DNA of 32,000 nucleotides from Nitrososphaera viennensis EN76 (GCF_000698785.1 NZ_CP007536.1:1350001-1382000); one strand, 5' to 3'; positions 1 to 15,299 are shown, numbered from the stretch's first letter. Translations and numbers: made by a program. The notes: generated from the sequence alone by a model not told the origin.

Positions 1-376
1 TGTACGCTGCGTTTATCCCCATCGTTCCCACAGGCACCCCGCGAGGCATTTGCGCTATGGAAAGGAAAGAATCCATGCCTCCATGCAAGGTGTCTCCTTT
101 TAGAGGAACCCCGATCACCGGTATGGTCGTAAGCGAAGCTATCATCCCGGGCAGGTGCGCTGACCCTTCCCCTGTGGCGATTATCACTTCAATTCCCCGG
201 GCATGGCATTCTGCCACGAACCTGATGGTTTTATGAGGGGACCTGTGTGCAGCCACTATGCGAGTTTCGCTTTTGATCCCAAAAGAGTCAAGAGCGACAG
301 TCGCGTCTTTCACCTGCTCAAGCAGCCGGGGAGATGGCGAAACTACAGACACAAGTGGTCGTTTTTCATGCATCAT
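1..376 (-). CDS. purE: N5-carboxyaminoimidazole ribonucleotide mutase (PurE), N-terminal part; runs off the window start
   Basis: Reverse-strand translation from the ATG at 376-374 gives MMHEKRPLVSVVSP...IVAAHRSPHK...GSAHLPGMIASLTTIPVIGVPLKG...MDSFLSIAQMPRGVPVGTMGI. These are the PurE AHR(S/T)P and AHLPG..PVIGVP motifs. There is no stop before position 1. The truncated ORF is absent from the ORF track, and track ORF 203..565(+) is its antisense shadow. Confidence 0.8.
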   Translation of the reverse strand, partial: MMHEKRPLVSVVSPSPRLLEQVKDATVALDSFGIKSETRIVAAHRSPHKTIRFVAECHARGIEVIIATGEGSAHLPGMIASLTTIPVIGVPLKGDTLHGGMDSFLSIAQMPRGVPVGTMGINAAY

Positions 377-605
377 ATACATTTTGCAAAATTAGGACAC
401 GAAGTATTAAGCCTAGTTGACATAGCGGGAGAAAAATCGCATAAATGGAATTATGGTCAGTTGTGTATTATAATAACGGCCGCCCAGAGAACGGTCCATG
501 AATCAGCGAAATGGAATATTTTCATATATACTAACTTTTTCAAAAATTATGATATTTACTTATAAACATTCATCGCCGAACTACCCCTAATGGTGAGGTC
601 CTGCA

Positions 606-2039
606 ATGAAGAAATCATCGCTCTATAATCCCAAGCTGACAATCAAGGACTTTGCAGAGCTTGTTTCTTCGCAAAGCATTTCGTGCGAGGAACTTACGGA
701 GATAACGCTGGACAGGATCATGAAGCTGAACCCAAAGCTGAATGGCTTCATAACGATTCTGGAAGACTCGGCCAGGCGTGACGCCAGGGATGCAGATGCC
801 TTGATCAGACAGGGCAAGTACAAGGGGCCGCTCCATGGTATACCCATAAGCCTCAAGGACCTCATCTATATGAAGGGCGCTAGGAGTACGAGCGGTTCCA
901 AGATACTTGCGGATTTTGTGCCGGATTATGATTCAACAGTGGTGAGGAAGCTGAAGGAAGCCGGCGCAATAATAGTCGGGATGAACAACACCCACGAGTT
1001 TGCCTGTGGGATAACCAACATCAACCCGCACTACGGACCTTCAAAGAACCCCTGGGATGACAGCAGGATGTCCGGTGGCTCAAGCGGCGGCTCTGCAGTG
1101 GCAGTCAGCGCCGGCATGTCACTGGCGTCTATAGGCACCGACACTAGCGGTTCAATCAGAGTGCCGTCTTCCCTTTGTGGCGTATTTGGGCTCAAGCCCA
1201 CCTATGGTCGTGTGAGCAAGTACGGGGTAATGCCCCTTGCCCCATCAATAGACCATATCGGTCCAATATGCAGGAGCCCGTGGGACATTGCAGCAGTCAT
1301 GCAGCATATCGCAGGGTACGACAGCCATGACCCCGACAGTGCTAACGCACCTGTTCCCAGCTACACAGATGAAGTGGAAAAGACACAGGGGAAATTCCGC
1401 CTTGGCATCCCCAAGCAATTCTTCTTTGACATCATGGATCCAAAGGTCAAGCATGTATTCGACAGCTTTGTAGAAAGGGCGGAAAGCTACCAGATATCAT
1501 CATCTCGCGTCGACGTTGACGAGACCGACAAGATATACGAGACATGGCGGGCCATAAGGCTGGGCGAATCGGCTACAACCCACAGCGAATGGCTCCGGAC
1601 GCGGCATGACGACTATGGAAAGGATGTCGTAAAGATGCTTGATGATGGCCTCAAGATAACGGCTGTGCATTACATTAGCGCGCACAGGTGGCGCCAAGAA
1701 ATAAGAGAGGCCATCCTCAGAGCCATGAAGCCATATGACGCATTGCTTGTACCCACCACTGCAATTGCAGCTCCCCTGCTGAACCAGAGTACCGTGCACC
1801 TCGATGGCAAGGATATCGAGGTATACCCTGTCCTGAGCAGGCTGACCACGGTATTTGACGTGACTGGCCTCCCTGCGCTCAACGTTCCCGCCGGCTTGGT
1901 AGACAACAGGCTGCCGGTGGGCGTCCAGCTTGTTGGAAGGCCGTTTGACGAAGCGCGACTTCTCCAGATCGCAGAAAGGTACGATCAGCAATACCACGTT
2001 TCAGAAGAGATGGTTCCGGCCCTTAACGTGACAATCTAG
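606..2039 (+). CDS. Amidase-signature family amidase (GatA-like)
   Basis: 477 aa with the amidase signature GGSSGGSAVAVSAGMSLASIGTDTSGSIRVPSSLCGVFGLKPTYGRVS and a typical length. Substrate cannot be assigned from sequence. Confidence 0.9.
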   Translation: MKKSSLYNPKLTIKDFAELVSSQSISCEELTEITLDRIMKLNPKLNGFITILEDSARRDARDADALIRQGKYKGPLHGIPISLKDLIYMKGARSTSGSKILADFVPDYDSTVVRKLKEAGAIIVGMNNTHEFACGITNINPHYGPSKNPWDDSRMSGGSSGGSAVAVSAGMSLASIGTDTSGSIRVPSSLCGVFGLKPTYGRVSKYGVMPLAPSIDHIGPICRSPWDIAAVMQHIAGYDSHDPDSANAPVPSYTDEVEKTQGKFRLGIPKQFFFDIMDPKVKHVFDSFVERAESYQISSSRVDVDETDKIYETWRAIRLGESATTHSEWLRTRHDDYGKDVVKMLDDGLKITAVHYISAHRWRQEIREAILRAMKPYDALLVPTTAIAAPLLNQSTVHLDGKDIEVYPVLSRLTTVFDVTGLPALNVPAGLVDNRLPVGVQLVGRPFDEARLLQIAERYDQQYHVSEEMVPALNVTI

Positions 2040-2285
2040 CTAGCCTGACTGCTTTTTCAACTTTTCATTTACGGAATAAACGGCGAAGCTGGCAAGAACT
2101 GCCACAGCGGCTGCCAGCACCCAGACCTCCTTGAGCGTCACGAGGTTTACCACCACAAACATTGCGGCAAGCGCGGCAATATTGATTATTATCAGCCGTC
2201 GCTTCATCTTTGGCCTGCCGCGTTCTGGAAGCATGTAAGAATTTGAGATAATCGGGTTTAAGCTTAGTTCACATGCCATGCGCAA
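2040..2285 (-). CDS. Small hydrophobic membrane protein (hypothetical); the more likely start is the ATG at 2207
   Basis: From the internal Met the ORF reads MKRRLIIINIAALAAMFVVVNLVTLKEVWVLAAAVAVLASFAVYSV, giving two predicted TM helices. It lies directly downstream of the binding-protein gene on the same strand. No family was recognised. Confidence 0.4.
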   Translation of the reverse strand: MRMACELSLNPIISNSYMLPERGRPKMKRRLIIINIAALAAMFVVVNLVTLKEVWVLAAAVAVLASFAVYSVNEKLKKQSG

Positions 2286-2327
2286 AATTGCATGTCACAA
2301 AAGAGCAGTTAATAAAAAGAAGGAAGG

Positions 2328-3785
2328 CTAGAGCCTTCCAAGTCCTATCGAGCTTCCCCTAAAGCGGGCAAGCCCGATTATCGCGACGAGCGAGGCTGCA
2401 AGCAACAAGGCCGCCATCACGCCGAATTCAGGCACGACGTTTGTGCCATAAACATCAACCGACGTGCTGCCGTCAGGCACGGTGAACTTGATGTGCGTCT
2501 CGGCGTCCGTAGAGCTGATGGTTACAAACTGCACATCCGTGCTTCCCGCTTTTACCATGGATATGCCGCTTATCATGCTAGTTGGCAGCTTTAGCTCCAC
2601 GTCTCCTCCCTTGTCGAACTTGACATTCACCGACTTGTTGTTAGGGTTTACCGTGACGCTCGTCACCTTGCTTTGCGGAGATATTCCGGTCACGCTATAG
2701 CTCGTGCCGTCGAGCTGAACAGTCACGCCGATGTCGCTTGTTGCCGCGTACCTTTCCGGCACGGCTATTTTCTTGTCTATCACGTCTTGCGTCAGTTGCG
2801 ACAGCCGTGCTTTCACGTCTGCAGGCACCTTGCCGTCTAGGCTGTGGAACGGCGCCAGGTACACGATGCCGTCGCCCGGACCTCCTTTCTCGGCCTCTAT
2901 GCCGGGCTTGAACACCTTGCCTTCAAACTTGTCCTGCAGGACCATCTGCACGGCCTGGTCAAACGCCTTGTCTATGTCAAGCACGAATGACGTCAGCACG
3001 GTGTCCGGCGCCAGCCGGTTCTGGTCTGCAACTGCGCCAAACGCGTAAATCCCCTTTTCCTTGGCAGCCTCTATGACGCCGTGGCCCGACGTGTCTGCCA
3101 CATGGAACAAAAAGTCTGCACCGGCGTTAACTTGCGCTAGGCCTGCTTCTTTGCCCTTGGCAGGGTTGTCCCAGTCGCCCAGATAGGTTCCAATTACCTT
3201 GATGTTAGGATTGACATAGTGTGCGCCTTGCTTGTAACCCTCAAAGAGGTTGATGAGGTTCGGGTACTGATCCCCGCCTACATAGGCTATGGTGCCGGTC
3301 TTGTCCATGGTGGCAGCCAGCGCGCCCAGCAGGAACGTGCCTTCCTGCTGCATCGGGAAGATGGAGGCCACGTTCTGCGAGCTGACAAGTCCGGTGAACA
3401 CCACGAACTTGGTGTTTGGATAGTCCTTGCCCACCTTGACTGCCGGGTCTCCCCACTGGAACCCGTGCGCGATTATCAGGTCGTAGCCGTCATTCGCGTA
3501 CTGCCTTAATGTAGCTTCAATGTCCGGTATTGCAATGTTTTCAGCATAAGCCAGCTTGTACCCGTACTTACTCTCCAACAGTTTGCCTGCACTGTACGCA
3601 GTCGCCCCCCACCCTCCGTCGCTGAAAAGGGCGTCCGTGACGAGCGCTATCTTTAGCTGCTTTCCGCTACTCTGTGCAAAAGCTGTCTGCTGCACGGGAG
3701 CAACCAGCGCCAATGACATCAACACTACAGCCACCGCCGCTGCAATAGCCGTGGTCGATGTCAGTCGTTTGAAACAGGATTTCAT
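2328..3785 (-). CDS. BMP/PnrA-family ABC transporter substrate-binding protein with a C-terminal extra domain and PEFG-CTERM anchor
   Basis: The signal peptide ends ...TAFA/QSS. The type-I PBP core has BMP motifs (KIALVTDALFSDGGWG, GTIAYVGGDQ, FGAVADQN). Residues about 351-448 form a Ser/Thr/Val-rich region. The C-terminus is VVPEFGVMAALLLAASLVAIIGLARFRG, that is PEFG, a TM helix and a basic tail. Confidence 0.9.
   Translation of the reverse strand: MKSCFKRLTSTTAIAAAVAVVLMSLALVAPVQQTAFAQSSGKQLKIALVTDALFSDGGWGATAYSAGKLLESKYGYKLAYAENIAIPDIEATLRQYANDGYDLIIAHGFQWGDPAVKVGKDYPNTKFVVFTGLVSSQNVASIFPMQQEGTFLLGALAATMDKTGTIAYVGGDQYPNLINLFEGYKQGAHYVNPNIKVIGTYLGDWDNPAKGKEAGLAQVNAGADFLFHVADTSGHGVIEAAKEKGIYAFGAVADQNRLAPDTVLTSFVLDIDKAFDQAVQMVLQDKFEGKVFKPGIEAEKGGPGDGIVYLAPFHSLDGKVPADVKARLSQLTQDVIDKKIAVPERYAATSDIGVTVQLDGTSYSVTGISPQSKVTSVTVNPNNKSVNVKFDKGGDVELKLPTSMISGISMVKAGSTDVQFVTISSTDAETHIKFTVPDGSTSVDVYGTNVVPEFGVMAALLLAASLVAIIGLARFRGSSIGLGRL
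2827..3095. repeat. Block A: 269-bp perfect inverted repeat of 11404..11672
   Basis: Base-by-base comparison of 2827..3095 with the reverse complement of 11404..11672 found no mismatch (position x pairs with 14499-x). The first mismatches lie immediately outside both ends. Confidence 0.9.
3319..3664. repeat. Block B: 346-bp perfect inverted repeat of 11801..12146
   Basis: Base-by-base comparison of 3319..3664 with the reverse complement of 11801..12146 found no mismatch (position x pairs with 15465-x). The offset differs from block A by 966 nt, so the order of the blocks is swapped between the two loci. Confidence 0.9.
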
Positions 3786-3807
3786 ACCGAGAAGGTCATC
3801 GGTAAAT

Positions 3808-3855
3808 TATTATACTTTCTTACGTTATCTTGCAAAACTAATGATATATCATAAA
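3808..3855 (-). promoter_or_regulatory. Promoter/operator element upstream of the binding-protein gene, shared with 7613..7660
   Basis: On the + strand it reads TATTATACTTT-N25-ATATATCATAAA. The gene-proximal AT box (3808-3818) lies 23-33 nt upstream of the ATG at 3785. The ungapped alignment with 7613..7660 is identical at 37 of 48 positions, with identical spacing. Confidence 0.55.
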
Positions 3856-3988
3856 ATACACGCAAATCATATAGCACTGGTTGGCAGAAACCAAGATTTT
3901 TAGAACTGTCCAGTCACTTTCAAATTTCTTTCAGGTTACGGTTGCTTGCGGTTGAATTTTCTGTGTAGCTAGGCCGCCATGACGGCCG

Positions 3989-4924
3989 TCACCTTTGTCC
4001 CCTCTTGTACGGGATGGCCAGCGCGGCAGGCGCGCCGGTCTTCTTGTACATTCCGGCAAGGACTGCAATCGGGATCAGGTATGGAAGCATCAGGAGGAAC
4101 TGGAACGGCACCTGCACCCCTGTGGCCTGCAGCCCGAGCTGGAACGAGTCGACCATGCCGAATATGAATGCGCCGAGGGTAATCCAGTACGCCTTCCACC
4201 TCCCGAATATCACCAGCGCAAGTGCAATCCACCCGGCTCCCCCCGTGACGTTTTCAAGGAAATAGCCAGTCTGGACAAGCGAAAAGTAGGCGCCGCCTAC
4301 TCCTGCCAGGGCCCCTCCGATTATCAGTGTCAGGTAGCGTATGCGGTAAACGTTGACGCCGAGGGTGTCTGCCTGTTTTGGGTTCTCCCCGACCGTCCTT
4401 ATCTTGAGGCCCAGCTTTGTCTTGAAGATGAAATAATGAGTCAGGGGCACCAGCAGAAACGCAATGTATACGAGCGGGTCGTGGTTGAACAGAACAGGCC
4501 CGATGCCCGGAAGGTTCGAGAGCCCGGGTATGTCGATTTTTGGCATGAGTTCTACGCTTGGGGCGACTGTGCGGACGCCAAAAGCGAGCCTGTAGAGCAG
4601 CGCGGCAAGCCCTGTTCCAAGCAGCCATATTGCCAAGCCGGCTGCAAGCTGGTTGGTCCGGATGGTGATGCTCATGAACCCCATGAGGATCGCAAGGGCT
4701 GCCGCTCCTACGATTGCCATCAGGATTCCGACGACATAGTTCCCGGTCAGGTACGTGCCCATGAAGCCGGTAAATGCGCCAATCAGCATCATCCCCTCAA
4801 CCCCCAGGTTCAAAACGCCAGAGCGCTCTGCAATCTTTTCACCCAGCGCGGCAAAGAGGATGGGAATGCTCAGACGGATGCCCGATACTATGATGCCGAT
4901 GATAATCGCCTCTTCGCCGGCCAT
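3989..4924 (-). CDS. ABC transporter permease (BMP/nucleoside-type importer)
   Basis: 311 aa and polytopic. Its start overlaps the upstream permease stop by 1 nt (TAATG). Confidence 0.9.
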   Translation of the reverse strand: MAGEEAIIIGIIVSGIRLSIPILFAALGEKIAERSGVLNLGVEGMMLIGAFTGFMGTYLTGNYVVGILMAIVGAAALAILMGFMSITIRTNQLAAGLAIWLLGTGLAALLYRLAFGVRTVAPSVELMPKIDIPGLSNLPGIGPVLFNHDPLVYIAFLLVPLTHYFIFKTKLGLKIRTVGENPKQADTLGVNVYRIRYLTLIIGGALAGVGGAYFSLVQTGYFLENVTGGAGWIALALVIFGRWKAYWITLGAFIFGMVDSFQLGLQATGVQVPFQFLLMLPYLIPIAVLAGMYKKTGAPAALAIPYKRGQR

Positions 4925-5991
4925 TAGCGCGCACCCCCCTTTTTCCTCATGCCAAGCCAGATTACAAATAGCTCGCCGACCAGCACGAACACAAGCACAA
5001 GGGCTTGCAGCGTCATGGAAAACGCGCTGGGCACACCGATGCTCCTGTACATGGTTTCAGAGCCTGTCATCAGGGCAGAGAAAAAGAAGGCCACTATGGC
5101 CACACCCAACGGATGCTGCCTTCCAAGTAGGGCTATTATGACGGCCACAAAGCCATAACCGGGCGAGATCCCCTCTATCAGGATATGCTGCACGCCAGAA
5201 ACGAGCAGGCCGCCGGCAATCCCGGCCAGGCCGCCGCTTATGCCCAGCGTGATGAAAACGCTCTTTGTGATGTTCATCCCGGCATAGCGTGCCGCCTTGA
5301 TGTTTGCGCCGACGCTCCTTATCTCGAATCCTATCTTGGTCTTCCAGAGGTAGTAGACCCCGACAGTCGCAAGGGCGGCTATGAAAATGCCGGCATGAAG
5401 GCGCGTGCCGGGAAAAACTATTGGCATCTGTGACGCGTCGGATATTTCCGGGGAGTACGGGTTAAAGCCGGGCGCCTTGATCGGCCCGTGCAGCAGGAAC
5501 GATATAAAGAGGAGCGCGACAAAGTTCAGGAGCACGGTCGAGATGACCTCGTTCACGCCGAACTTGACCTTGAGGGCGGCCGGGACAAGGGCATAGAGCG
5601 CGCCGAAAATAAAACTCAGGACGATTGCGGCAAGGATAGCAAGGCCAGGGACCGAGCCCAAAAGAGAGATCCCGACAAGGGTGCCTCCGAGGGCGCCCAT
5701 GTACAGCTGGCCCTCCGCCCCGATGTTCCATTGCCTGCACTTGAACGCAACAGAGACGGCCAGCCCGGTCAAGAGAAGCGAAATGGTCTTTAGCATCACA
5801 TCCCCAAACCCGAAGACATTGCCAAAGGCCCCCTGGAACATTATGGCATAAGCCTTTCCGACATCCACGCCGGTGGAGCCCAGTATGATGGCGCCCACGA
5901 CAAAAGCCAGGCTTGCGGACAGGAAAGGAACAAAGAACTTGACGTCTCTGACCTTCTCCCGCGTCTGATAGAATATGCTTGCGACGCTCAT
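4924..5991 (-). CDS. ABC transporter permease (BMP/nucleoside-type importer)
   Basis: 355 aa and polytopic. It has an ATGA start/stop overlap with the ATPase gene at 5988-5991. Confidence 0.9.
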   Translation of the reverse strand: MSVASIFYQTREKVRDVKFFVPFLSASLAFVVGAIILGSTGVDVGKAYAIMFQGAFGNVFGFGDVMLKTISLLLTGLAVSVAFKCRQWNIGAEGQLYMGALGGTLVGISLLGSVPGLAILAAIVLSFIFGALYALVPAALKVKFGVNEVISTVLLNFVALLFISFLLHGPIKAPGFNPYSPEISDASQMPIVFPGTRLHAGIFIAALATVGVYYLWKTKIGFEIRSVGANIKAARYAGMNITKSVFITLGISGGLAGIAGGLLVSGVQHILIEGISPGYGFVAVIIALLGRQHPLGVAIVAFFFSALMTGSETMYRSIGVPSAFSMTLQALVLVFVLVGELFVIWLGMRKKGGAR

Positions 5992-7523
5992 ACCGTCCCC
6001 TCCTTCGGGATTGCCTTTCTGCCCCCCATCAACAGGCCGAGGTAATCCACGTCGGCGTCCTTTCTGTCCACCACGTCCATTATCTTGCCTTCGTAAATCA
6101 CGGCAATGCGGTCGCAGACTGTCAGTATCTCGTCCAGGTCGAGCGAAATCATCAGGACGCCCACGCCGTTGTCGCGCTGTTTCACCAGCTGCTTGTGGAT
6201 GTATTCTGTCGCGCCGATGTCAAGGCCTCTGGTCGGGTTGTGCACGACTAGAACCTTGGGATTTCTGGCAAGCTCCCTTGCCATCAGCACCTTTTGCAAG
6301 TTTCCGCCCGACATCGAGTTTACGGGGACGTTTATCCCTGCCGTCTTTACTTCAAAATCAGACACCACGTTTTGCGCGAACTTTTTCATCTTTTCCTGTT
6401 TCAGAAATATCCTGCCGGAGTATTCGCCTGTATACCACCTGTCCAGGATGAGGTTTTCGGCAATAGAGTACTCCAGAATGAGCCCCGTGTCAAGCCTGTC
6501 CTGCGGAACATAAGCAAGGCCCCATTCCCTGATCTTTCTTGGCGGCAGGTTTGCCACGGACTTTCCGTCCATGATTATTTCGCCGGCCTGCACCTTTCTC
6601 AGTCCTGCTATCACTTCGGCAAGCTCGGTCTGGCCGTTTCCGTCGACGCCGGCTATGCCAAGGATTTCCCCCTTGCGGAGCTCAAACGACAGGTCTTTCA
6701 GGTACATTATGTTCACGTTGTTGAGCGCCGAGATGTTTTTCAGCTGCAGGACAGCGCCCCGCCCGCCGGATGGCCGGGGTTCCATGCTCTCTATCACAGG
6801 GCGGCCGACCATCATCTTGGCAAGCTCGGTCTCGCTGGTTTCAGAGGTCTTGATGGTTCCGACCACCTTGCCGCCACGCAGCACAGTGACCCTCGTGCTT
6901 GCCTCCATGACTTCGTGGAGCTTGTGGGTGATGAATATTATGGAAAGCCCCTGCTTCACCATGGATTCAAGCGTTGCAAACAGCGCTTTTTCTTCCTGTG
7001 GGGTGAGCATACCTGTGGGCTCGTCAAGGATCAGGATGTCGACGTCCCTGTAGAGCGCCTTGATTATTTCGACGCGCTGCTGCTCCCCCACTGCCAGGTT
7101 GCCCACTATGGCCTTTGGGTCTACCTTGAGCCCGTACTTTTCAGACAGCTGGGTTATCTTTTTTTCAGCGCCTGCCAAGTCCAAGAACAGCCCCTTGGAC
7201 TTTAGGCCCACGATGACGTTTTCCGTGACGGTGTGCGGGAGCGTGAGCAGAAAGTGCTGGTGCACCATCGCAATCCCAAGCTCAAGGGCGTCGTTTGGCG
7301 ATTTAATGTCGGTTTTCTTTCCTTTCACGTAAACCTCGCCTGCCTGAGGCTGGTACAGCCCGTAAAGGATGCTCATGAGCGTGGACTTGCCGGCGCCGTT
7401 TTCTCCCAAGAGCGCATGAATCTCGCCTTTTGACAGCTCGAAATCGACGCTGTCGTTTGCCACCACGTCCCCGAACCTGATGGTGATCCCCTTCATCTGC
7501 ACGATAGGCTCGCCAGCAGTCAC
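5988..7523 (-). CDS. ABC transporter ATP-binding protein with two fused ATPase domains
   Basis: 511 aa with Walker A GENGAGKST, signature LAVGEQQRVEI and Walker B ILILDEPT. The second domain has GVDGNGQTEL, MSGGNLQKV and VLVVHNPTRGLD. The listed start is GTG at 7523; the ATG at 7496 (MKGITIRFG) is an alternative. Confidence 0.9.
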   Translation of the reverse strand: MTAGEPIVQMKGITIRFGDVVANDSVDFELSKGEIHALLGENGAGKSTLMSILYGLYQPQAGEVYVKGKKTDIKSPNDALELGIAMVHQHFLLTLPHTVTENVIVGLKSKGLFLDLAGAEKKITQLSEKYGLKVDPKAIVGNLAVGEQQRVEIIKALYRDVDILILDEPTGMLTPQEEKALFATLESMVKQGLSIIFITHKLHEVMEASTRVTVLRGGKVVGTIKTSETSETELAKMMVGRPVIESMEPRPSGGRGAVLQLKNISALNNVNIMYLKDLSFELRKGEILGIAGVDGNGQTELAEVIAGLRKVQAGEIIMDGKSVANLPPRKIREWGLAYVPQDRLDTGLILEYSIAENLILDRWYTGEYSGRIFLKQEKMKKFAQNVVSDFEVKTAGINVPVNSMSGGNLQKVLMARELARNPKVLVVHNPTRGLDIGATEYIHKQLVKQRDNGVGVLMISLDLDEILTVCDRIAVIYEGKIMDVVDRKDADVDYLGLLMGGRKAIPKEGTV

Positions 7524-7612
7524 GGAAGGTCGGGCCCCGCTGTTGCAGGCATGCCGCCTTCCTGCCGCCGGGCAGAACTATTTGGCAACAGCAAAATGTA
7601 TCTGCGTGAAAG

Positions 7613-7660
7613 TATTATACTTTGGTACATCTTCTCAAAATAATAATCATATATCATAAA
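7613..7660 (-). promoter_or_regulatory. Promoter/operator element upstream of the ATPase-permease operon, shared with 3808..3855
   Basis: It has the same TATTATACTTT-N25-ATATATCATAAA architecture, located 90-137 nt upstream of the GTG at 7523. Confidence 0.5.
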
Positions 7661-7797
7661 GTTCCAAATAATGCATAGACTGTTCCGAGGAAAGTTGCAG
7701 GAATTTCCTCTTTCCACCTGCAACATGAACATATCGCAAGGTGACGTGGTAAAAGTCGCATGAAAGCCCAAGCGATCATGAAGATATTTGCTGTTTG

Positions 7798-7813
7798 CAG
7801 GCGCGCCCGCCTG
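7798..7813. promoter_or_regulatory. GC-rich inverted repeat CAGGCG-cgcc-CGCCTG (candidate operator half of a pair)
   Basis: It shares the 10-mer CAGGCGCGCC with 7884..7893. It stands out in an otherwise AT-rich divergent intergenic region. Confidence 0.4.
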
Positions 7814-7865
7814 TATCACAGATTTTCAATAAAATTATTTATGCCCTGGCGGGCAAATTTTTTGA

Positions 7866-7880
7866 TTTATACTTAAATAT
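7866..7880 (+). promoter_or_regulatory. TATA-like box for the fdrA operon
   Basis: TTTATACTTAAATAT lies 33-47 nt upstream of the fdrA ATG (7913). Confidence 0.4.
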
Positions 7881-7883
7881 TCA

Positions 7884-7895
7884 CAGGCGCGCCTG
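7884..7895. promoter_or_regulatory. Perfect 12-bp palindrome CAGGCGCGCCTG between the TATA-like box and the fdrA start (candidate operator)
   Basis: The sequence is self-complementary. It sits where archaeal repressors typically occlude the transcription start. Confidence 0.45.
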
Positions 7896-7912
7896 AACTT
7901 GGCGCAAGATGC

Positions 7913-9556
7913 ATGTCAGGCCACGACATATTCCACATAGCCATACGACAGAACTTTTACCGTGACTCCATGCAGCTGCTAAAGATTTCTGATAGCACGA
8001 GGCGCGCTAGCAGGGGAGTCGTGGAAGCCTCTGTGATAATGGCCACTGCCACCAACAAGGAGATACTCATGCGCCGGGGCTTCCGGCCGTCTGCGGTCAA
8101 CGAGGCCCAAGAGTCGGACATCATTATAGCCATCAGGGCCGGCGACGAGGAGGCAGTAAGGCTGGCGCTTTTGGAGGCAGACAGGCTGCTTGAATCCCCA
8201 CAGGGCGCTTCAAGGCAGGACGAGCACAAGGCCGGCGACCTGGACTCGGCCCTGAGATCCATGCCGGACGCTAACCTTGCGCTCGTATCTATCCCCGGCG
8301 ACCATGTCAGAGAGGTCTCGCTGATGCTTGTCGAGCGTGGAGTGCACCAGCAGATATTCAGCGACCACGTCCCAGTTGAGGACGAGCTAGAGATCAAGAC
8401 GCAGGCTGCAGGCAAGGGAGTGCTGGTACTTGGGCCCGGCGCCGGGACTTCTATAATCAACGGCAAGGGAATCGGGTTTTCAAACGCCGTCAGGATCGGT
8501 CCTGTAGGCATAGTGGCGGCGGCAGGTACGGGGCTGCAAGAAGTCTCCACCCTGCTAGACCATTCGGGCATCGGCGTAAAATATGGCCTTGGCGTTGGAG
8601 GCAACGACCCCAAGGACAAGATAGGCGGAATAATGATGATGCAGTGCATCAAGATCCTGGAAAGCTATGCCGACATCAAAGTCGTCGGCATCGTTTCAAA
8701 GCCGCCGTCCCCGTCGGTGCAGGAAAAAATTGAAGACTATATCGCCAGGGACGGAAAGAAAAAGTACGTGCTGGCGTTCATAGGCGGAGCCAAGAGCGAA
8801 AAGAAAAGCGACAGGATAACCAGGGTCAACACCCTGGCGTCGGCGGTCCTTGCAACTGCCAGGCAGCTTGGAAAGGAGCAGATCGCGCAGGCAGTCGCGC
8901 AGACCTACATCCCGCCGGAAAAATTGCTGGCCCTCTTGGAAGGCGAATGGACCAAGCTGGCCCAAGGACAAAAGCGCATCAGGGCGCTCTACACCGGAGG
9001 GACTTTTACCTACGAGGCAGAGGTGATTCTCGGCTCCATACTACAAGGCGAACCCATCTATTCCAATTCTCCCATCATGGACATAAAGCAGCTTGACGAT
9101 TCGTTCAAGAGCCAGGAGACCTCGATTGTTGACCTCGGGGAGGAGGAATTCACAAGGGGCAGGCCTCACCCCATGATCGACCCGACCATAAGGCGGTTCA
9201 GGATAGCAGAGGAGGCGGCCGACCCGGACGTCGCCGTGCTCCTGATGGATTTTGTACTCGGGTACGGCTCCCACCCGGACCCTGTCGGCGCGGTCCTGAA
9301 CGAGATAAGCGATGCCAAGCGCGCCGCGGAAAAAGCAGAGAGGCACCTGTGCGTGATAGCCCATGTCTGCGGCACTTCAGGCGACCTCCAGGGATACGCC
9401 CAGAGCATCGAAAAGCTGACGCGTGCAGGCTGCGTGGTTTTGCCTACAAACGCCATGGCCGCGGTGGCTTCTGCCGTAGTTGCCCGGCGGGGCAAGGTGG
9501 ATATTGATAGAATCTATGCGCAGTACCTGACTGTGGACGGAGGCTCAATGAAGTGA
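7913..9556 (+). CDS. fdrA: FdrA-family protein (succinyl-CoA-synthetase-alpha-like; E. coli FdrA/YahF homolog)
   Basis: 547 aa. The N-terminus (IAIRQNFYRDSMQLLKIS...VIMATATNKEILMRRGF) parallels the FdrA N-terminus as I recall it. It has CoA-ligase-like Gly-rich segments and sits next to DUF2877, carbamate kinase and DUF1116 genes. Confidence 0.85.
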   Translation: MSGHDIFHIAIRQNFYRDSMQLLKISDSTRRASRGVVEASVIMATATNKEILMRRGFRPSAVNEAQESDIIIAIRAGDEEAVRLALLEADRLLESPQGASRQDEHKAGDLDSALRSMPDANLALVSIPGDHVREVSLMLVERGVHQQIFSDHVPVEDELEIKTQAAGKGVLVLGPGAGTSIINGKGIGFSNAVRIGPVGIVAAAGTGLQEVSTLLDHSGIGVKYGLGVGGNDPKDKIGGIMMMQCIKILESYADIKVVGIVSKPPSPSVQEKIEDYIARDGKKKYVLAFIGGAKSEKKSDRITRVNTLASAVLATARQLGKEQIAQAVAQTYIPPEKLLALLEGEWTKLAQGQKRIRALYTGGTFTYEAEVILGSILQGEPIYSNSPIMDIKQLDDSFKSQETSIVDLGEEEFTRGRPHPMIDPTIRRFRIAEEAADPDVAVLLMDFVLGYGSHPDPVGAVLNEISDAKRAAEKAERHLCVIAHVCGTSGDLQGYAQSIEKLTRAGCVVLPTNAMAAVASAVVARRGKVDIDRIYAQYLTVDGGSMK

Positions 9557-9562
9557 TGACGC

Positions 9563-9742
9563 ATGGGTAGCGAGGAGCGCGCAAGGAAACTTTTGGACTC
9601 GGAGCTCAAGGTCATCAACTTGGGCCTAGACGTTTTTTACAGTTCGCTAGAGATGCAGAACGTCAAGGTGATAAATGTGGACTGGAAGCCCGCCCCCAAG
9701 CTTGACGAGGAGTCTGAAGACATCTTGGACAAGATACTGTGA
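9563..9742 (+). CDS. Small 59-aa ORF resembling the N-terminal extension of long-form DUF1116 (YahG-type) proteins
   Basis: ATG at 9563, TGA at 9740-9742, sequence MGSEERARKLLDSELKVINLGLDVFYSSLEMQNVKVINVDWKPAPKLDEESEDILDKIL. It is below the ORF-track length cutoff. It fills the fdrA-DUF2877 gap exactly, 6 nt after the fdrA stop and 6 nt before the next start. The VINxGlxxFxxxLxxQxVxVxxxDWxP pattern matches my recollection of the YahG N-terminus. Confidence 0.5.
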   Translation: MGSEERARKLLDSELKVINLGLDVFYSSLEMQNVKVINVDWKPAPKLDEESEDILDKIL

Positions 9743-9748
9743 GGCACT

Positions 9749-10729
9749 TTGAAAGTCGAACCCCTGCCAAGTGTAGAGCCGGCCGTTTTTCAATGCAGTT
9801 CCATTGGCAGCGTCCACGGCACGCTGGCGCAAAGCCAAGGCAGGATAGGCAGGGTGATAAACGTCTTTGACACCACTATCAACATCCGCACAGACGGTGA
9901 CGAGCTTTTGGTTCTCACGCTGGGCAAGACGAAGTCGCCCATAAACGTGAATGTTGTCGGTGCCGGGCCGGCGCACAGTACGGGGTTTGCAGGCTTGGCA
10001 AGGCAGGGCAGCGACGCCGTGAGGACAAAGTGCGCCGGAAGGACAATGATCCAGGCCGGCAGGGTGCTAGTATCAATTGATAGGCAGGATATCTTTCAAA
10101 ATTCGCTGGATGAACCGGCGGCAGAGGCGCTGCGCACATTTGCGAGTGCAAGCGGCAGGGTGTCGTCGGCGCTTGCAGGCGAGGCGGAAAAAGGGAGGAC
10201 CGGCTGCCTGCTCAGGCCGGACATCACCACAGCGGGCCTGCTCAACGCGTTTTCTGGCCGGCTTTTGTCTGGCTGGTGCGACACGCAGGACGGCATGGCA
10301 GAGGCGCTTGCGGGATTGTGTGGGAGGGGGCCGGGGTTTACCCCTGCCGGCGACGACTTTATCGCAGGGTACCTTGCGATGTTCAACTGGCTTTGCAGCG
10401 CCCTGGAACTTGGACCCCCCATAATCCCCGGCGGCGAATTTTTGCGCCTGACCACCTGGACGAGCTTTAAACTGATGGAGTACAGCGCAAGAGACCTGCT
10501 TGACGAGCAGGCGCAGTCGATGCTCAATTCCGTGGCAGGAGGCAGGGCGGATGATTACGTCCGGTGCATCGAGGTCATTGGCAAGCGGGGCCACACCTCC
10601 GGCATCGATTTTGCCACCGGCGCCACGTTTGGCCTGTACACCGTCGCGGACAGCGTGTGCGGGACGAGAAGCCTCGGCGACATTTCAGGCCGCCTAGGCA
10701 TAACCTCATCAGGCCCGCAATTATCATAA
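9749..10729 (+). CDS. DUF2877-family protein (E. coli YlbF/YahE homolog)
   Basis: 326 aa with the GRGPGFTPAGDDFIAGYL motif typical of the family, in cluster context. The listed start is TTG. Confidence 0.7.
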   Translation: MKVEPLPSVEPAVFQCSSIGSVHGTLAQSQGRIGRVINVFDTTINIRTDGDELLVLTLGKTKSPINVNVVGAGPAHSTGFAGLARQGSDAVRTKCAGRTMIQAGRVLVSIDRQDIFQNSLDEPAAEALRTFASASGRVSSALAGEAEKGRTGCLLRPDITTAGLLNAFSGRLLSGWCDTQDGMAEALAGLCGRGPGFTPAGDDFIAGYLAMFNWLCSALELGPPIIPGGEFLRLTTWTSFKLMEYSARDLLDEQAQSMLNSVAGGRADDYVRCIEVIGKRGHTSGIDFATGATFGLYTVADSVCGTRSLGDISGRLGITSSGPQLS

Positions 10730-10779
10730 CTTGCGAATTCTAGCATATCTAAAATTGCTGCATGGCAAACTGAACTATG

Positions 10780-10789
10780 TTTATATAAT
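10780..10789 (+). promoter_or_regulatory. TATA box for the carbamate kinase gene
   Basis: TTTATATAAT is centred about 25 nt upstream of the first in-frame start (TTG at 10810). The only nearby ATG (10796) is out of frame. Confidence 0.5.
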
Positions 10790-10809
10790 TTTTCAATGGC
10801 AAGATTTCC

Positions 10810-12720
10810 TTGCAACAAATCCAGACCGTTGTCATTGCACTCGGCGGAAACGCGCTGTTAAAGCGCGACGACAAGGGAACTTTTGCGGAGCAGTTTGCCA
10901 ACGTCCAGGCGGCGGCAAAGGGAATAGCCGACCTTTTGCAGAAAGGGTACAGGGTGGTGCTCACCCACGGAAACGGCCCCCAGGTCGGGGCGACCGTGCT
11001 GAGGCACGAAGCGGCCAAGAACACGGTTCCCCCGTTCCCGCTTTACGCCTGCAATGCGGAAACGCAGGGGATGATAGGCTACATGGTCGTGCAGGGTCTC
11101 CAGAACGAGCTTGACGCAAGAGGCATCAAAAAATCAGTCGTTTCGCTGGTCACGAGGGTCGTGGTCAATCAGGCGGACCCTGCCTTCAAGAACCCGACCA
11201 AACCGGTCGGCCCATATTTCGAGAGGCATCAGTACCCGAACCTGCTCAACATTTTTGAGGGCTACAAGCAGGGAGCCAGGTACGTCAACCCGGACATCAG
11301 GGTGCTTGCGGCGTACCTCGGCGACTGGGACAGCCCCCTCAAGGGGAGGGAAGTTGCCATGGTGCAGATAGGCTCCGGGGCGGATGTTTTGCTTCACACC
11401 GCCGACACGTCGGGCCACGGCGTCATAGAGGCTGCCAAGGAAAAGGGGATTTACGCGTTTGGCGCAGTTGCAGACCAGAACCGGCTGGCGCCGGACACCG
11501 TGCTGACGTCATTCGTGCTTGACATAGACAAGGCGTTTGACCAGGCCGTGCAGATGGTCCTGCAGGACAAGTTTGAAGGCAAGGTGTTCAAGCCCGGCAT
11601 AGAGGCCGAGAAAGGAGGTCCGGGCGACGGCATCGTGTACCTGGCGCCGTTCCACAGCCTAGACGGCAAGGTCTCTGTGAAGGTAAAAAAGAAGCTGGAA
11701 GAGCTGACCCGGCGCATAATAAGCAAAGAGATAACCGTCCCTGAAAAGTACGAGGCGACCACCGACACTATAGCAGGGCAGGTGCCTTCTGCGCCGGCTA
11801 GAAAGCAGCTAAAGATAGCGCTCGTCACGGACGCCCTTTTCAGCGACGGAGGGTGGGGGGCGACTGCGTACAGTGCAGGCAAACTGTTGGAGAGTAAGTA
11901 CGGGTACAAGCTGGCTTATGCTGAAAACATTGCAATACCGGACATTGAAGCTACATTAAGGCAGTACGCGAATGACGGCTACGACCTGATAATCGCGCAC
12001 GGGTTCCAGTGGGGAGACCCGGCAGTCAAGGTGGGCAAGGACTATCCAAACACCAAGTTCGTGGTGTTCACCGGACTTGTCAGCTCGCAGAACGTGGCCT
12101 CCATCTTCCCGATGCAGCAGGAAGGCACGTTCCTGCTGGGCGCGCTTGCCGCAATGATGAGCAAGACGGGCATCATCGGGTACGTGGGGGGAGACCAGAT
12201 TGACAGGTTCATTGCCGACGACGTAAAATTCACCTTCAAGTACCAGGGGGACAGCAGGTACAGGAGGGTGGTGCCTTCCCCGAAACCCGTCGCAATACTG
12301 GAGCACCAGGCGATCCGCTTGCTGGCCGACGCGGGCTTTGTGGTGGTCGCCTGCGGCGGCGGTGGCATCCCCGTTATTGAAGTAGCAGGCGGCTGGAGTG
12401 GGGTTGACGCGGTCATAGACAAAGACCTTGCGGGCGAGAAGATGGCAAGGCAGATCGGGGCTGACAAGTTTGTCATCCTGACAGACGTGGACGGCCTGTA
12501 CATGGACTACAAGAAACCCACGCAGAGGCTGGTCAAGGAAGTCAGGGTCGGCCAGCCGGGAGCGGTCAACATTTCGCAGCTGGAGGAAGGGAGCATGGGG
12601 CCCAAGGTCGGCGCCTGCCTAGAGTTTGTGAGAAATGGCGGGAGGGAGGCTGTCATTGCTAGCCTTGATAGGCTCGTTGACGCGGTTGAGGGGCTGTCGG
12701 GAACCCACTTTTTCCCGTAG
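10810..12720 (+). CDS. Carbamate kinase with an in-frame inserted, circularly permuted BMP-type solute-binding domain
   Basis: Residues 1-141 (VVIALGGNALL, VLTHGNGPQVG, DPAFKNPTKPVGPYF) and 464-636 (RRVVPSPKP, VVACGGGGIPV, VDAVIDKDLAGEKMA, ILTDVDG, GSMGPKVGA) together make a colinear 314-aa carbamate kinase. Residues 142-463 are BMP-family sequence. The reading frame is uninterrupted. Confidence 0.85.
   Translation: MQQIQTVVIALGGNALLKRDDKGTFAEQFANVQAAAKGIADLLQKGYRVVLTHGNGPQVGATVLRHEAAKNTVPPFPLYACNAETQGMIGYMVVQGLQNELDARGIKKSVVSLVTRVVVNQADPAFKNPTKPVGPYFERHQYPNLLNIFEGYKQGARYVNPDIRVLAAYLGDWDSPLKGREVAMVQIGSGADVLLHTADTSGHGVIEAAKEKGIYAFGAVADQNRLAPDTVLTSFVLDIDKAFDQAVQMVLQDKFEGKVFKPGIEAEKGGPGDGIVYLAPFHSLDGKVSVKVKKKLEELTRRIISKEITVPEKYEATTDTIAGQVPSAPARKQLKIALVTDALFSDGGWGATAYSAGKLLESKYGYKLAYAENIAIPDIEATLRQYANDGYDLIIAHGFQWGDPAVKVGKDYPNTKFVVFTGLVSSQNVASIFPMQQEGTFLLGALAAMMSKTGIIGYVGGDQIDRFIADDVKFTFKYQGDSRYRRVVPSPKPVAILEHQAIRLLADAGFVVVACGGGGIPVIEVAGGWSGVDAVIDKDLAGEKMARQIGADKFVILTDVDGLYMDYKKPTQRLVKEVRVGQPGAVNISQLEEGSMGPKVGACLEFVRNGGREAVIASLDRLVDAVEGLSGTHFFP
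11404..11672. repeat. Block A copy (inverted repeat of 2827..3095)
   Basis: 269/269 identical to the reverse complement of 2827..3095. It encodes HGVIEAAKEKGIYAFGAVADQNRLAPDTVLTS...APFHSLDGKV. Confidence 0.9.
11801..12146. repeat. Block B copy (inverted repeat of 3319..3664)
   Basis: 346/346 identical to the reverse complement of 3319..3664. It encodes KQLKIALVTDALFSDGGWG...MQQEGTFLLGALA. Confidence 0.9.
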
Positions 12721-12825
12721 CGCTTGGCTTGCGATCAGAATCCTCCTATTTTGTGATATATACTAATTTGAAGATCCTGCCGCAATTAAACTTAAATCGC
12801 AACTTCAAGACGTGCTTGCTGACAC

Positions 12826-14088
12826 ATGGCAGAAGACATAAAGGTCAAAATCGAATCTGCAAACAAGGACGCAATACAAAAGGTTCTTTCCTCAAGACCC
12901 TTTCTTGTAGACGTCAGGCCCGCAATAGAAGTCCTGCCAGACATGAAAAAGAGGTCGATATTCCATGCAGGCCCGCCGGTGGACTGGAAGAGGATGTGCG
13001 GGCCCATGAAGGGGGCCGTGGTAGCCACCGTCATCTTTGAAAAGTGGGCCAACAGCTGGGACGAGGCTGCCAAACTGGTGGAGAGCGGAGAGGTCGAGCT
13101 TTCGCCCAACCACGACCACGACGCGGTGGGGCCCATGGCCGGCGTCATATCCCCCTCGATGCCGGTGTTTGTTGTCAGGAACGAAAAGCACGGCAACACC
13201 AACTACGGGAGGATAGTAGAGAACAAGGTTCAGTTCGGAGCCTACGACGCGCAGGCGATAGAATCGCTAGAGTTCTGGTCCACCGTCCTTGCGCCGGCAA
13301 TACGCAAGGCGCTTGAAAGGATCAAGCGGGCAGGCGACAAGGGCATAGACCTGAAATCCATCATGGCCAAGGCCCTGTACATGGGCGACGAGCTGCACAA
13401 CCGCCCGGTGGCAGGCACGGCACTCTTTGCAGTGGCCATAATGCCGCACATGGTGGAGACTGTGGAGAAGGAGCAGCTGATAAAGGTCATAGACTATTTT
13501 GCCGCAAACGAGATCTTCTTTTTGTGCCTGGCGATGGCCGCCTGCAAGGCCACCATGAACGCTGCTTCAAACATTGAACACAGCACCCTTGTAACGGCGA
13601 TGGCCCGCAACGGCACCGACTTTGGGATAAAGGTGAGCGGCCTTGGAAACCAGTGGTTCACCGGGCCGGCCGGGATGATACGCGGCATGTACTTTCCGGG
13701 ATTTGGCGACAAGGACGCCAACCCGGACATGGGAGACAGCGCGATAACAGAGACGGCAGGTGTCGGGGGCTTTGCGCTTGCCGACTCGCCGGCGATACTT
13801 TCGCTTGTCGGCGGGACCGCGGAGGACGCCCTAAAGTACACCAAGCAGATGCGCGAGATTACCATGGCATCAAACGACACCTTCCTCGTCCCCATATTTG
13901 ACTTCCAGGGCACGGGCACGGGAATAGACATCCGAAAGGTCGTGAAAACGGGCATACTGCCGGTGATCGACACCGCAATAGCCCACAGGGAGCCGGGGAT
14001 AGGCATGATAGGCGCCGGCCTTGTCAACCCGCCGATGGAGGCTTTCAAGGGTGCGCTTCGTGAATTCGCGCGCAAGTACAAGCTCTAG
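12826..14088 (+). CDS. DUF1116-family protein (E. coli YlbE/YahG homolog)
   Basis: 420 aa. HAGPPVDWKRMCGPMKGAV, SPNHDHDAVGPMAGV, NPDMGDSAITETAGVGGFA and NTAIAHREPGIGMIGAG closely parallel YlbE/YahG as I recall them. Confidence 0.85.
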   Translation: MAEDIKVKIESANKDAIQKVLSSRPFLVDVRPAIEVLPDMKKRSIFHAGPPVDWKRMCGPMKGAVVATVIFEKWANSWDEAAKLVESGEVELSPNHDHDAVGPMAGVISPSMPVFVVRNEKHGNTNYGRIVENKVQFGAYDAQAIESLEFWSTVLAPAIRKALERIKRAGDKGIDLKSIMAKALYMGDELHNRPVAGTALFAVAIMPHMVETVEKEQLIKVIDYFAANEIFFLCLAMAACKATMNAASNIEHSTLVTAMARNGTDFGIKVSGLGNQWFTGPAGMIRGMYFPGFGDKDANPDMGDSAITETAGVGGFALADSPAILSLVGGTAEDALKYTKQMREITMASNDTFLVPIFDFQGTGTGIDIRKVVKTGILPVIDTAIAHREPGIGMIGAGLVNPPMEAFKGALREFARKYKL

Positions 14089-14091
14089 GGG

Positions 14092-15210
14092 CTAGAACCT
14101 CTGAATGATGTTAAAGAAGGTGTCACGCTGCGCCGGCTCGCGCTTTATCTCGCGCACCATGCTTGCAAGCTCTTGCAAGGACGTCCCGCTTGCCTTTCCT
14201 GCCGCCTTGAATATCTCCTCTGAAAAGGCCGTTCCCACCATGTCGTTTCCGCCGTACGAAAGCGCGACCTGCGATATCTTTTTGCCAAGCGCCACCCAGT
14301 ACACCGAGATGTTCTTTAGCGTGTTTCCAAGCAAGAGCCTTGACACTGCTATCACGCGCAGGTCGTAAGGCGACGAGCTCTCGGATTTTATCATCTCCTT
14401 TTGCTCAAGTTCCGTGTTTTCAAGGCTGAACTTGAGCGGGATAAACGTCGTAAAGCCGCCGGTCTTTTTGTGCAGCTCGCGTATCTTGATGACGTGGTCA
14501 ACAATGTGCTCTGGTTTTTCAATGTGGCCAAAGAGCATCGTGCAGTTGCTGCGGATGCCAAGCTCGTGCGCCTGCCTTGCAGTGTCGAGCCACTCTTCGC
14601 CGGAGCACTTGCCTATCACTATTTTCTTGCGGGTGTCAGGATGGAATATCTCCGCCCCGCCTCCCGGGAGCGCGTCAAGGCCGGCAGCCTTTAATCGCAA
14701 GAGTACTTCTTTTACAGAGTTGCGTGTCAGGCGCGCGATAAAGAACACCTCGGCTGGGGTGAGCGCCTTTATAGTCACCTTTGGATGCTCGGACTTTATG
14801 GCGCGCATCATGTTTTCGTAATATTCAAGCCCCAGCTTGGGGTGAAAGCCGCCGACGATGTGGAGTTCGGTTGCTCCCATCTGCTCTATAGCTATCTTGG
14901 CCCTTGCGACAACCTGCTCGGTAGAAAGCGTGTAGGCGTCCTCCTCGTTGCCCTTGCGATAGAATGCGCACAATGGACAGCTGGCGGCGCACACGTTCGT
15001 GTAGTTGAGATAATAAGAAGCGACAAAGGTCACAGTGTTGCCGCACAGGTCGCGGCGCAGTCTGTCTGCAGCCGCGCCGAGCAGAAAGAGGTTTTCCTCG
15101 TTCATCAATTGAACGCCGTCCTCGTAGGACAGCTCCTCCTCTCCGGCAAGCGCCTTTTCAAGCGCCGGCGTCCCGCCGACCTTGCCAAAGGCGTCAGCTA
15201 TTGACTGCAA
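14092..15210 (-). CDS. Radical SAM enzyme of the MqnC/MqnE (futalosine pathway) / CofH-like family
   Basis: 372 aa with NYTNVCAASCPLCAFY (CxxxCxxC), a GGxHP motif and a C-terminal MqnC/CofH-type region. MqnC versus MqnE cannot be decided by eye. Confidence 0.8.
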   Translation of the reverse strand: MQSIADAFGKVGGTPALEKALAGEEELSYEDGVQLMNEENLFLLGAAADRLRRDLCGNTVTFVASYYLNYTNVCAASCPLCAFYRKGNEEDAYTLSTEQVVARAKIAIEQMGATELHIVGGFHPKLGLEYYENMMRAIKSEHPKVTIKALTPAEVFFIARLTRNSVKEVLLRLKAAGLDALPGGGAEIFHPDTRKKIVIGKCSGEEWLDTARQAHELGIRSNCTMLFGHIEKPEHIVDHVIKIRELHKKTGGFTTFIPLKFSLENTELEQKEMIKSESSSPYDLRVIAVSRLLLGNTLKNISVYWVALGKKISQVALSYGGNDMVGTAFSEEIFKAAGKASGTSLQELASMVREIKREPAQRDTFFNIIQRF

Positions 15211-15299
15211 CAGTGTGTAACTTGCCGTTAGGCCATTATAAATTTAGGCTCCCTCTCCAAATCATTAAATAGCATAAAGAGGCCAAAACAGTCAGACAT

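Follow-up and report, generated by a model that had tools for sequence, protein, structure and literature searches.

Which compound is broken down by the allFGH-type gene cluster of Nitrososphaera viennensis EN76, and why does the carbamate kinase encoded in this cluster carry a solute-binding domain in its middle? Both questions are raised by a stretch of 32,000 nucleotides (NZ_CP007536.1:1350001-1382000; hereafter the window), in which a BMP-type ABC importer (bmp-nupABC) stands beside genes for AllF-, AllH-, and AllG-family subunits and a carbamate kinase. A cluster of allFGHK with bmpA-nupABC, biuH, a gatA-like amidase, and purE has been described in ammonia-oxidizing archaea and comammox (Rasmussen et al. 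2025, PMC12625717); N. viennensis EN76 was named there as carrying biuH and allFGHK, and a conversion of oxalurate to ammonia and ATP was proposed. Both the cluster and its oxalurate interpretation are therefore already published for these archaea. The present analysis confirms the cluster as real and concludes that its substrate assignment should be loosened: the block at window positions 2307..14094 is probably, by a modest measure, an accessory arm through which a pathway for biuret-series ureides conserves ATP. This explanation is built on the gene families, their conserved order, their tight linkage to biuH, the intact kinase motifs, and the domain inserted into the kinase. The kinase variant with an inserted binding domain is apparently unpublished. 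Literature searches, in which most subscription journals lay outside coverage, returned no paper on a kinase–BMP fusion, and the words "fused" and "fusion" are absent from the text of PMC12625717 and from its available supplements.

A carbamate kinase interrupted by a permuted BMP domain

The kinase gene encodes 636 amino acids (aa), in which kinase residues 1–141 are followed by BMP residues 174–351, a short linker, BMP residues 42–173, and kinase residues 464–636. The resulting insert of 322 aa (aa 142–463) is located in the protruding subdomain, which constitutes the catalytic lid. An amino-acid-kinase fold with its protruding subdomain, the motifs GGN, HGNGPQ, DKD, and SMGPK, and the lid lysine K131 are all present, and the catalytic motifs are kept in 92–100% of 79 aligned proteins; with these motifs intact, the kinase part is predicted to be a carbamate kinase. 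The profile TIGR00746 scores 345 bits in two pieces, under its cut-off of 358. In a structure model computed from a deeper alignment (predicted local distance difference test, pLDDT, 93; predicted template modeling score, pTM, 0.85), the kinase part superimposes over 301 residues on carbamate kinase 1e19 with Z 40.5 and a root-mean-square deviation of 2.1; for the insert, the matches are type I binding proteins. The alignment underlying this final model (A2) has about 20 lid residues of unfused kinases scattered over the insert columns as well as two misplaced rows. An earlier prediction from fused proteins only (pLDDT 60) is not relied on, and alignments A3 and A4 were dropped on account of misalignment.

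The free BMP protein and the insert both match PF02608 with a type I binding-protein fold, and the best relatives of the bmp product in the PDB are 7x0r, AtzT (6pi5), and 3s99. The aromatic sandwich of AtzT is retained (W349, W173), and the polar contacts are changed (S97 to G, E165 to N, N220 to D). Pocket residues D346, W349, H397, F399, N144, and D199 are invariant in all 79 aligned proteins; N144, aligned with the ligand-binding Glu165 of AtzT, lies only three residues from the junction. The free protein additionally features an N-terminal signal-like segment and a PEFG-CTERM-like tail (TIGR04296, 22 bits, under the cut-off of 25). A third BMP paralogue (62% identical; C1:603667, L099:7521-8612) is encoded directly before a dCache histidine kinase gene and without ABC genes, possibly representing another sensing use of the BMP domain.

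The fused architecture recurs in 72 database clusters at 66–81% identity, 21 of which are less than 90% identical to each other. Eight of the nine AllG-bearing genomes of this genus carry the fusion, some as partial genes; the ninth differs in its locus, and these genomes gave no instance of the insert being lost within the lineage. Fusion-bearing loci form one AllG clade (support 98/96), and among the best 150 matches in a 50% library of 1.84 billion proteins the insert occurs in this family only, other long kinases being end-to-end fusions. In fusion-bearing lineages, bmp has also been relocated to the distal end of the importer gene set. Unfused sister kinases occupy the same operon slot, and a DQ-type dipeptide is found at the junction in sister kinases and free BMP proteins alike. 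Since the remaining lid comprises 25 residues in fused and unfused forms, no kinase residue was lost. Most simply, the fusion would have arisen by one crossover with a bmp copy in circular or tandem form; tandem BMP proteins exist.

Gene conversion and possible ligand gating

Two tracts of the insert, of 269 and 346 nucleotides (nt), are identical in inverted orientation to the neighboring bmp gene (Table 1), and outside both tracts the two sequences are 65–75% alike. The longest run shared between the insert and the bmp gene of the same genome amounts to 92–346 nt in six of eight genome pairs and lies at different positions, as against at most 47 nt shared with bmp genes of other genomes; conversion is therefore recurrent. 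One locus (L022), whose bmp is partial, has a longest tract of 20 nt. As a result of conversion, protein trees of insert versus free BMP are largely unresolved. At the first junction, however, the junction-proximal segment is unconverted, with a proportion of nonsynonymous differences (pN) of ~0.2 against a near-saturated synonymous proportion (pS), and the insert is therefore under selection in its own right.

What such selection might maintain is suggested by the position of the insert, which is attached to the kinase lid via a pocket-facing loop. In carbamate kinase, the open–closed movement of this lid brings the lysine to carbamoyl phosphate and is essential for catalysis (PMC3474736). 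CarB is encoded in the N. viennensis genome. Because carbamoyl phosphate is thus also made with CarB, an unregulated kinase would be wasteful, costing ATP by the established stoichiometry. The imported compound may control lid movement, such that the kinase would spare CarAB-made carbamoyl phosphate when the substrate is absent. Ligand gating by the imported compound would be the most economical explanation of the insert, and its chances appear evenly balanced. Two points weigh against it: the sensor is not required for the pathway, as a plain kinase suffices in most AllG-bearing genera, and the structure model gives no sign of conformational coupling.

Alternatively, the insert might be a tolerated passenger or a structural, scaffolding domain, much of whose conservation stems from gene conversion with bmp. 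The long own-gene tracts, the sister lineages without an insert, and the DQ common to both junctions, which offers a route to an accidental single-crossover origin, make this a real possibility, though one short of even. It is harder to reconcile with the unconverted junction segment, which retains pocket residues under purifying selection, and with the persistence of the insert throughout the lineage. An assembly artefact, as might be suspected from the identical inverted tracts and from chimeric forms of both genes in databases, has a negligible probability, being ruled out by the same architecture and junctions in all 72 clusters, including contigs of 1.7 and 3.1 Mb, and by junction flanks that are diverged rather than repeated.

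All four crossover chimeras of bmp and the kinase gene exist in databases, two of them on contigs with the intervening segment inverted, and normal forms occur in the same species. Chimeras and the inverted nupABC-allF-allH segment (window 2827..12146) were encountered in several assemblies (L109, P0068-P0074, P0094, P0108, P0118, P0125), one form in at least three samples. They stem either from genuine inversion between the converted repeats or from faulty joins made in assembly.

The candidate biuret-series substrate

The hydrolase encoded left of the window scores 250 bits to BiuH versus 152 bits to TrtA and has the catalytic Cys and BiuH-type residues at all distinguishing positions except A134 (consensus residues from PMC7948467). 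Of 200 sampled genomes of the family, 31 were found to have AllG; biuH occurs in 26 of these 31 as against 25 of the 169 genomes without AllG. The counts include four unpublished genomes, G161, G077, G099, and G169 (without those four: 26/30 and 24/166); the genomes are related and often incomplete, and no statistic is claimed. In other genera, purE, the amidase gene, biuH, nupABC-bmp, and allFHG form one single locus. One genome (G016, L113) has the kinase gene upstream of purE instead of between allH and allG, and in another (G188, L116) the allFG locus is divergent and its kinase unfused.

Two units can be told apart within the N. viennensis locus. The genome of N. evergladensis (G101), 89–92% identical on both flanks, is without exactly window 2307..14094. 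Because it keeps the amidase gene and biuH while being without the bmp-to-allG genes, gene content assigns the amidase to the biuH module and bmp-nupABC-allFH-kinase-allG to an accessory block. The amidase, which clusters at 90% with the N. evergladensis protein, scores under the curated cut-offs of three subfamilies (AtzE 375 vs. 461, AtzF 240 vs. 487, GatA 342 vs. 481 bits) and is a possible allophanate hydrolase. An earlier note, made from the sequence of the window, had placed an amidase beyond the importer; the gene is there, but travels with biuH and not with the allFGHK genes.

Further evidence comes from three bacterial allF-allG-kinase loci that carry a TrtA-type or intermediate hydrolase. 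The hydrolase of L053 has all TrtA consensus residues and TrtA as its best PDB match, and those of L059 and L034 are intermediate between BiuH and TrtA and accompanied by a PucR regulator. Permease-like proteins of ~520 aa without Pfam match are encoded beside the hydrolase and allFG-kinase genes in these unrelated bacteria (L053:3980-7242, L059:5904-7457, L034:11250-12806). Loci of Bradyrhizobium and Pandoraea (L072-L091) hold two different allG genes, mostly two allF as well, a kinase, a BMP importer, and a divergent cysteine hydrolase, an arrangement that possibly serves two-step phosphorolysis.

A biuret-series ureide is the likelier substrate of the AllFGH-type enzyme, if by no wide measure. 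By chemical reasoning, allophanate and carboxybiuret are carboxylate-ended ureides, as is oxalurate. The BMP–ABC system would import a flat, hydrogen-bond-rich ureide, e.g., biuret or triuret. BiuH would free ammonia and allophanate, the latter being hydrolyzed by the amidase or decaying to urea for urease. AllF, the 59-aa protein, AllH, and AllG may then cleave a terminal carbamoyl group with phosphate from one member of the series, with a limited chance for allophanate or carboxybiuret and a slender one each for biuret and for triuret. Finally, the kinase would convert carbamoyl phosphate and ADP to ATP and carbamate, which would yield ammonia for ammonia monooxygenase. Several points speak against this biuret-series pathway. 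The sole tested family member, E. coli AllFGH, acts on oxalurate (PMC11326118), and orthology of archaeal to E. coli AllG, a borderline case in the tree test below, is neither established nor firmly excluded. Co-location with biuH could mean a common niche rather than one pathway. A substitution of AllFGH for the amidase finds no support in the counts, the amidase missing in 6 of 26 AllG-positive and 10 of 25 AllG-negative biuH genomes. No data came to light on activity, ligand, or expression of the cluster.

On the published model, followed in outline by the earlier note, AllFGH functions as oxamic transcarbamylase and uses imported oxalurate, the oxamate being excreted or hydrolyzed by the amidase. 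All three subunit families of that enzyme (FdrA, DUF1116, DUF2877) are indeed present in the cluster and named after it, and archaeal AllG shares 43% identity with its E. coli namesake. It is, however, 46% identical to YahG, and archaeal AllF scores 271 bits to E. coli YahF versus 240 to AllF. In a tree of 34 AllG sequences, the archaeal clade joins YahG and two Bacillota sequences (93/94), while forcing it with E. coli AllG is not firmly rejected by the approximately unbiased (AU) test (p-AU 0.051). Nor is a source of oxalurate apparent: no oxalurate-making genes were found in the genome, tblastn found no match there to AllA, AllC, AllD, or AllE, and PF02615, the AllD family, was without a match although its control worked. 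OHCU decarboxylase/TrtB, xanthine dehydrogenase, and the HpxW family, which would supply an oxamate hydrolase, were likewise not found in the genome. Since no genes of allantoin or purine degradation were found, the substrate has to come from import or from BiuH. The model also leaves the linkage to biuH and TrtA-type genes unexplained, and oxalurate thus appears an unlikely substrate. For the earlier note, this means that its general route from an imported ureide via carbamoyl phosphate to ATP and ammonia fits the families and the intact kinase motifs, that the transfer of the E. coli function is weak, and that the pathway is unlikely to be entered by allantoin or nucleosides.

Some other N-carbamoyl or cyclic ureide—an s-triazine, a pyrimidine, or a product of oxidized purines—that is also handled by the PurE-like, FAH-family, and CodB proteins is quite improbable. 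It would account for the two-aromatic sandwich that the BMP pocket shares with AtzT, a binder of guanine and hydroxy-triazines, and for the PurE-like and FAH genes, which the locus retains although neither has been given a role. Yet the polar pocket residues are unlike those of AtzT, no ring-opening enzyme was found (the AtzD search was matchless, but so was its control), and apart from one 25% match no allantoinase was found in the genome.

In its fullest form, the biuret-series pathway would combine a natural ligand-gated kinase switch, gene conversion that keeps sensor and importer matched, and a new transcarbamylase of the biuret series that provides ammonia-oxidizing archaea with ammonia and substrate-level ATP drawn from a fertilizer impurity; that all of these hold together is rather unlikely.

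The locus and its known relatives

The open reading frames (ORFs) listed by the earlier note are all present at the positions given and belong to the families it named, every family call on cluster ORFs passing the Pfam cut-offs in profile searches (Table 1). The AllF-family protein reaches 374 bits with the NCBIfam FdrA profile, below its cut-off of 433. An ammonia-oxidizer background, also proposed in that note, is borne out by an archaeal amoA (E 1e-116) and two urease alpha genes in the genome, a single contig of 2,527,938 bp that is 99.9% complete. The note did not mention the 636-aa kinase with its insert, the 59-aa gene, or the continuation of the locus beyond the window's left edge with purE-like, codB, biuH, ArsB/NhaD-type transporter, and FAH-family genes. 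The product of the 59-aa gene is 33% identical to YahG residues 2–53 (E 7e-9) and 23% to AllF residues 499–554, and the gene is kept at the same position in relatives.

Table 1. Features of the N. viennensis locus, numbered from the first nucleotide of the window
Feature	Position	Strand	Family or remark
PurE-like gene, second copy, 5' part (171 aa, runs off window)	2..382	-	PF00731
Amidase-signature hydrolase ("gatA-like" amidase of PMC12625717)	606..2039	+	PF01425, 395 bits; triad motifs present
BMP-family substrate-binding protein gene bmp	2328..3785	-	PF02608, 190 bits
ABC permease 2 (NupC-like)	3989..4924	-	PF02653 (BPD_transp_2)
ABC permease 1 (NupB-like)	4924..5991	-	PF02653 (BPD_transp_2)
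Double ABC ATPase (NupA-like)	5988..7523	-	PF00005 twice
AllF/FdrA/YahF-family subunit	7913..9556	+	PF00549 (Ligase_CoA)
59-aa gene between fdrA and DUF2877	9563..9742	+	Detached AllF C-terminal / YahG N-terminal module
AllH/DUF2877/YahE-family subunit	9749..10729	+	PF11392, 67 bits
Carbamate kinase (aa 1-141 + 464-636) interrupted by permuted BMP domain	10810..12720	+	AA_kinase + Bmp; TIGR00746
Circularly permuted BMP insert (aa 142-463) within kinase	11233..12198	+	BMP C-part, ~12-aa linker, BMP N-part
269-nt tract	11404..11672	+	Identical (inverted) to bmp 2827..3095
346-nt tract	11801..12146	+	Identical (inverted) to bmp 3319..3664
AllG/DUF1116/YahG-family subunit	12826..14088	+	PF06545, 269 bits
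Genes left of window			codB/NCS1 permease (PF02133), biuH (PF00857), ArsB/NhaD-type transporter (PF03600), FAH-family gene (PF01557)

The PurE-like protein (C1:1349870-1350382) is a second paralogue, with the housekeeping purEK located elsewhere in the genome (C1:421044-422626). This second copy is kept beside biuH in many genera, where, by way of speculation, it might stand in for TrtB and decarboxylate an N-carboxy ureide. An 81-aa membrane-like ORF 3' of the amidase gene (2040..2285, minus strand) is conserved in N. evergladensis (82%). On the far side, the block is flanked by a divergent MqnE/MqnC-type radical SAM pair (14092..16427), with an mqnD-like gene situated at the opposite end, beyond the biuH module. 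Both bmp and the ATPase gene are preceded by a copy of a 52-nt direct repeat (3804..3855 and 7609..7660, respectively; 77% alike). A sigma-70 promoter scan was set aside as not applicable to archaea.

N. viennensis, available in pure culture, and N. evergladensis, without exactly this block, constitute a natural comparison. If biuret-series compounds feed the block, soil nitrifiers would gain ammonia and substrate-level ATP from impurities of urea fertilizer and from oxidation products of purines, and a substrate would be in hand for the large uncharacterized YahFG-like branch of the family. The insert would provide a handle on the pathway ligand, one pocket being common to sensor and importer, and, if gating is real, would be nature's equivalent of engineered binding-protein switches.

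All components that define the cluster of PMC12625717—allF/G/H/K, bmpA-nupABC, biuH, gatA-like amidase, and purE in an amoA-bearing archaeon—are found at the window locus, which is the published cluster itself. The kinase insert, gene conversion, and closeness to YahFG are not described in the accessible parts of that publication, in whose figures a long allK may be visible. E. coli AllFGH and AllK (PMC11326118, PMC9843812) comprise the same three subunit families and a carbamate kinase. In contrast to this system, the archaeal AllG does not group as sister to its E. coli namesake in the tree, an allantoin pathway is missing, the gene order differs, the AllF tail is a separate gene, and the kinase has an insert. 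The yahE-yahF-yahG-yahI genes of E. coli, for which no functional study of yahFGI was found within the same literature coverage, are closer in BLAST scores for AllF and AllG and in the tree, and share the order of F, small module, and G; their neighbors are yahD and yahJ, however, and not biuH or a BMP importer. The solved carbamate kinases, among them 1e19 and 2we4, whose fold and catalytic motifs are retained in the fused kinase, are all single-domain proteins of ~310 aa. Engineered switches, exemplified by RG13 (PMC6335823), also unite a binding protein and an enzyme by circular permutation and domain insertion. While these are synthetic and have the enzyme permuted into the binding protein, the N. 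viennensis kinase is natural and of the reverse arrangement, with a possible allostery.

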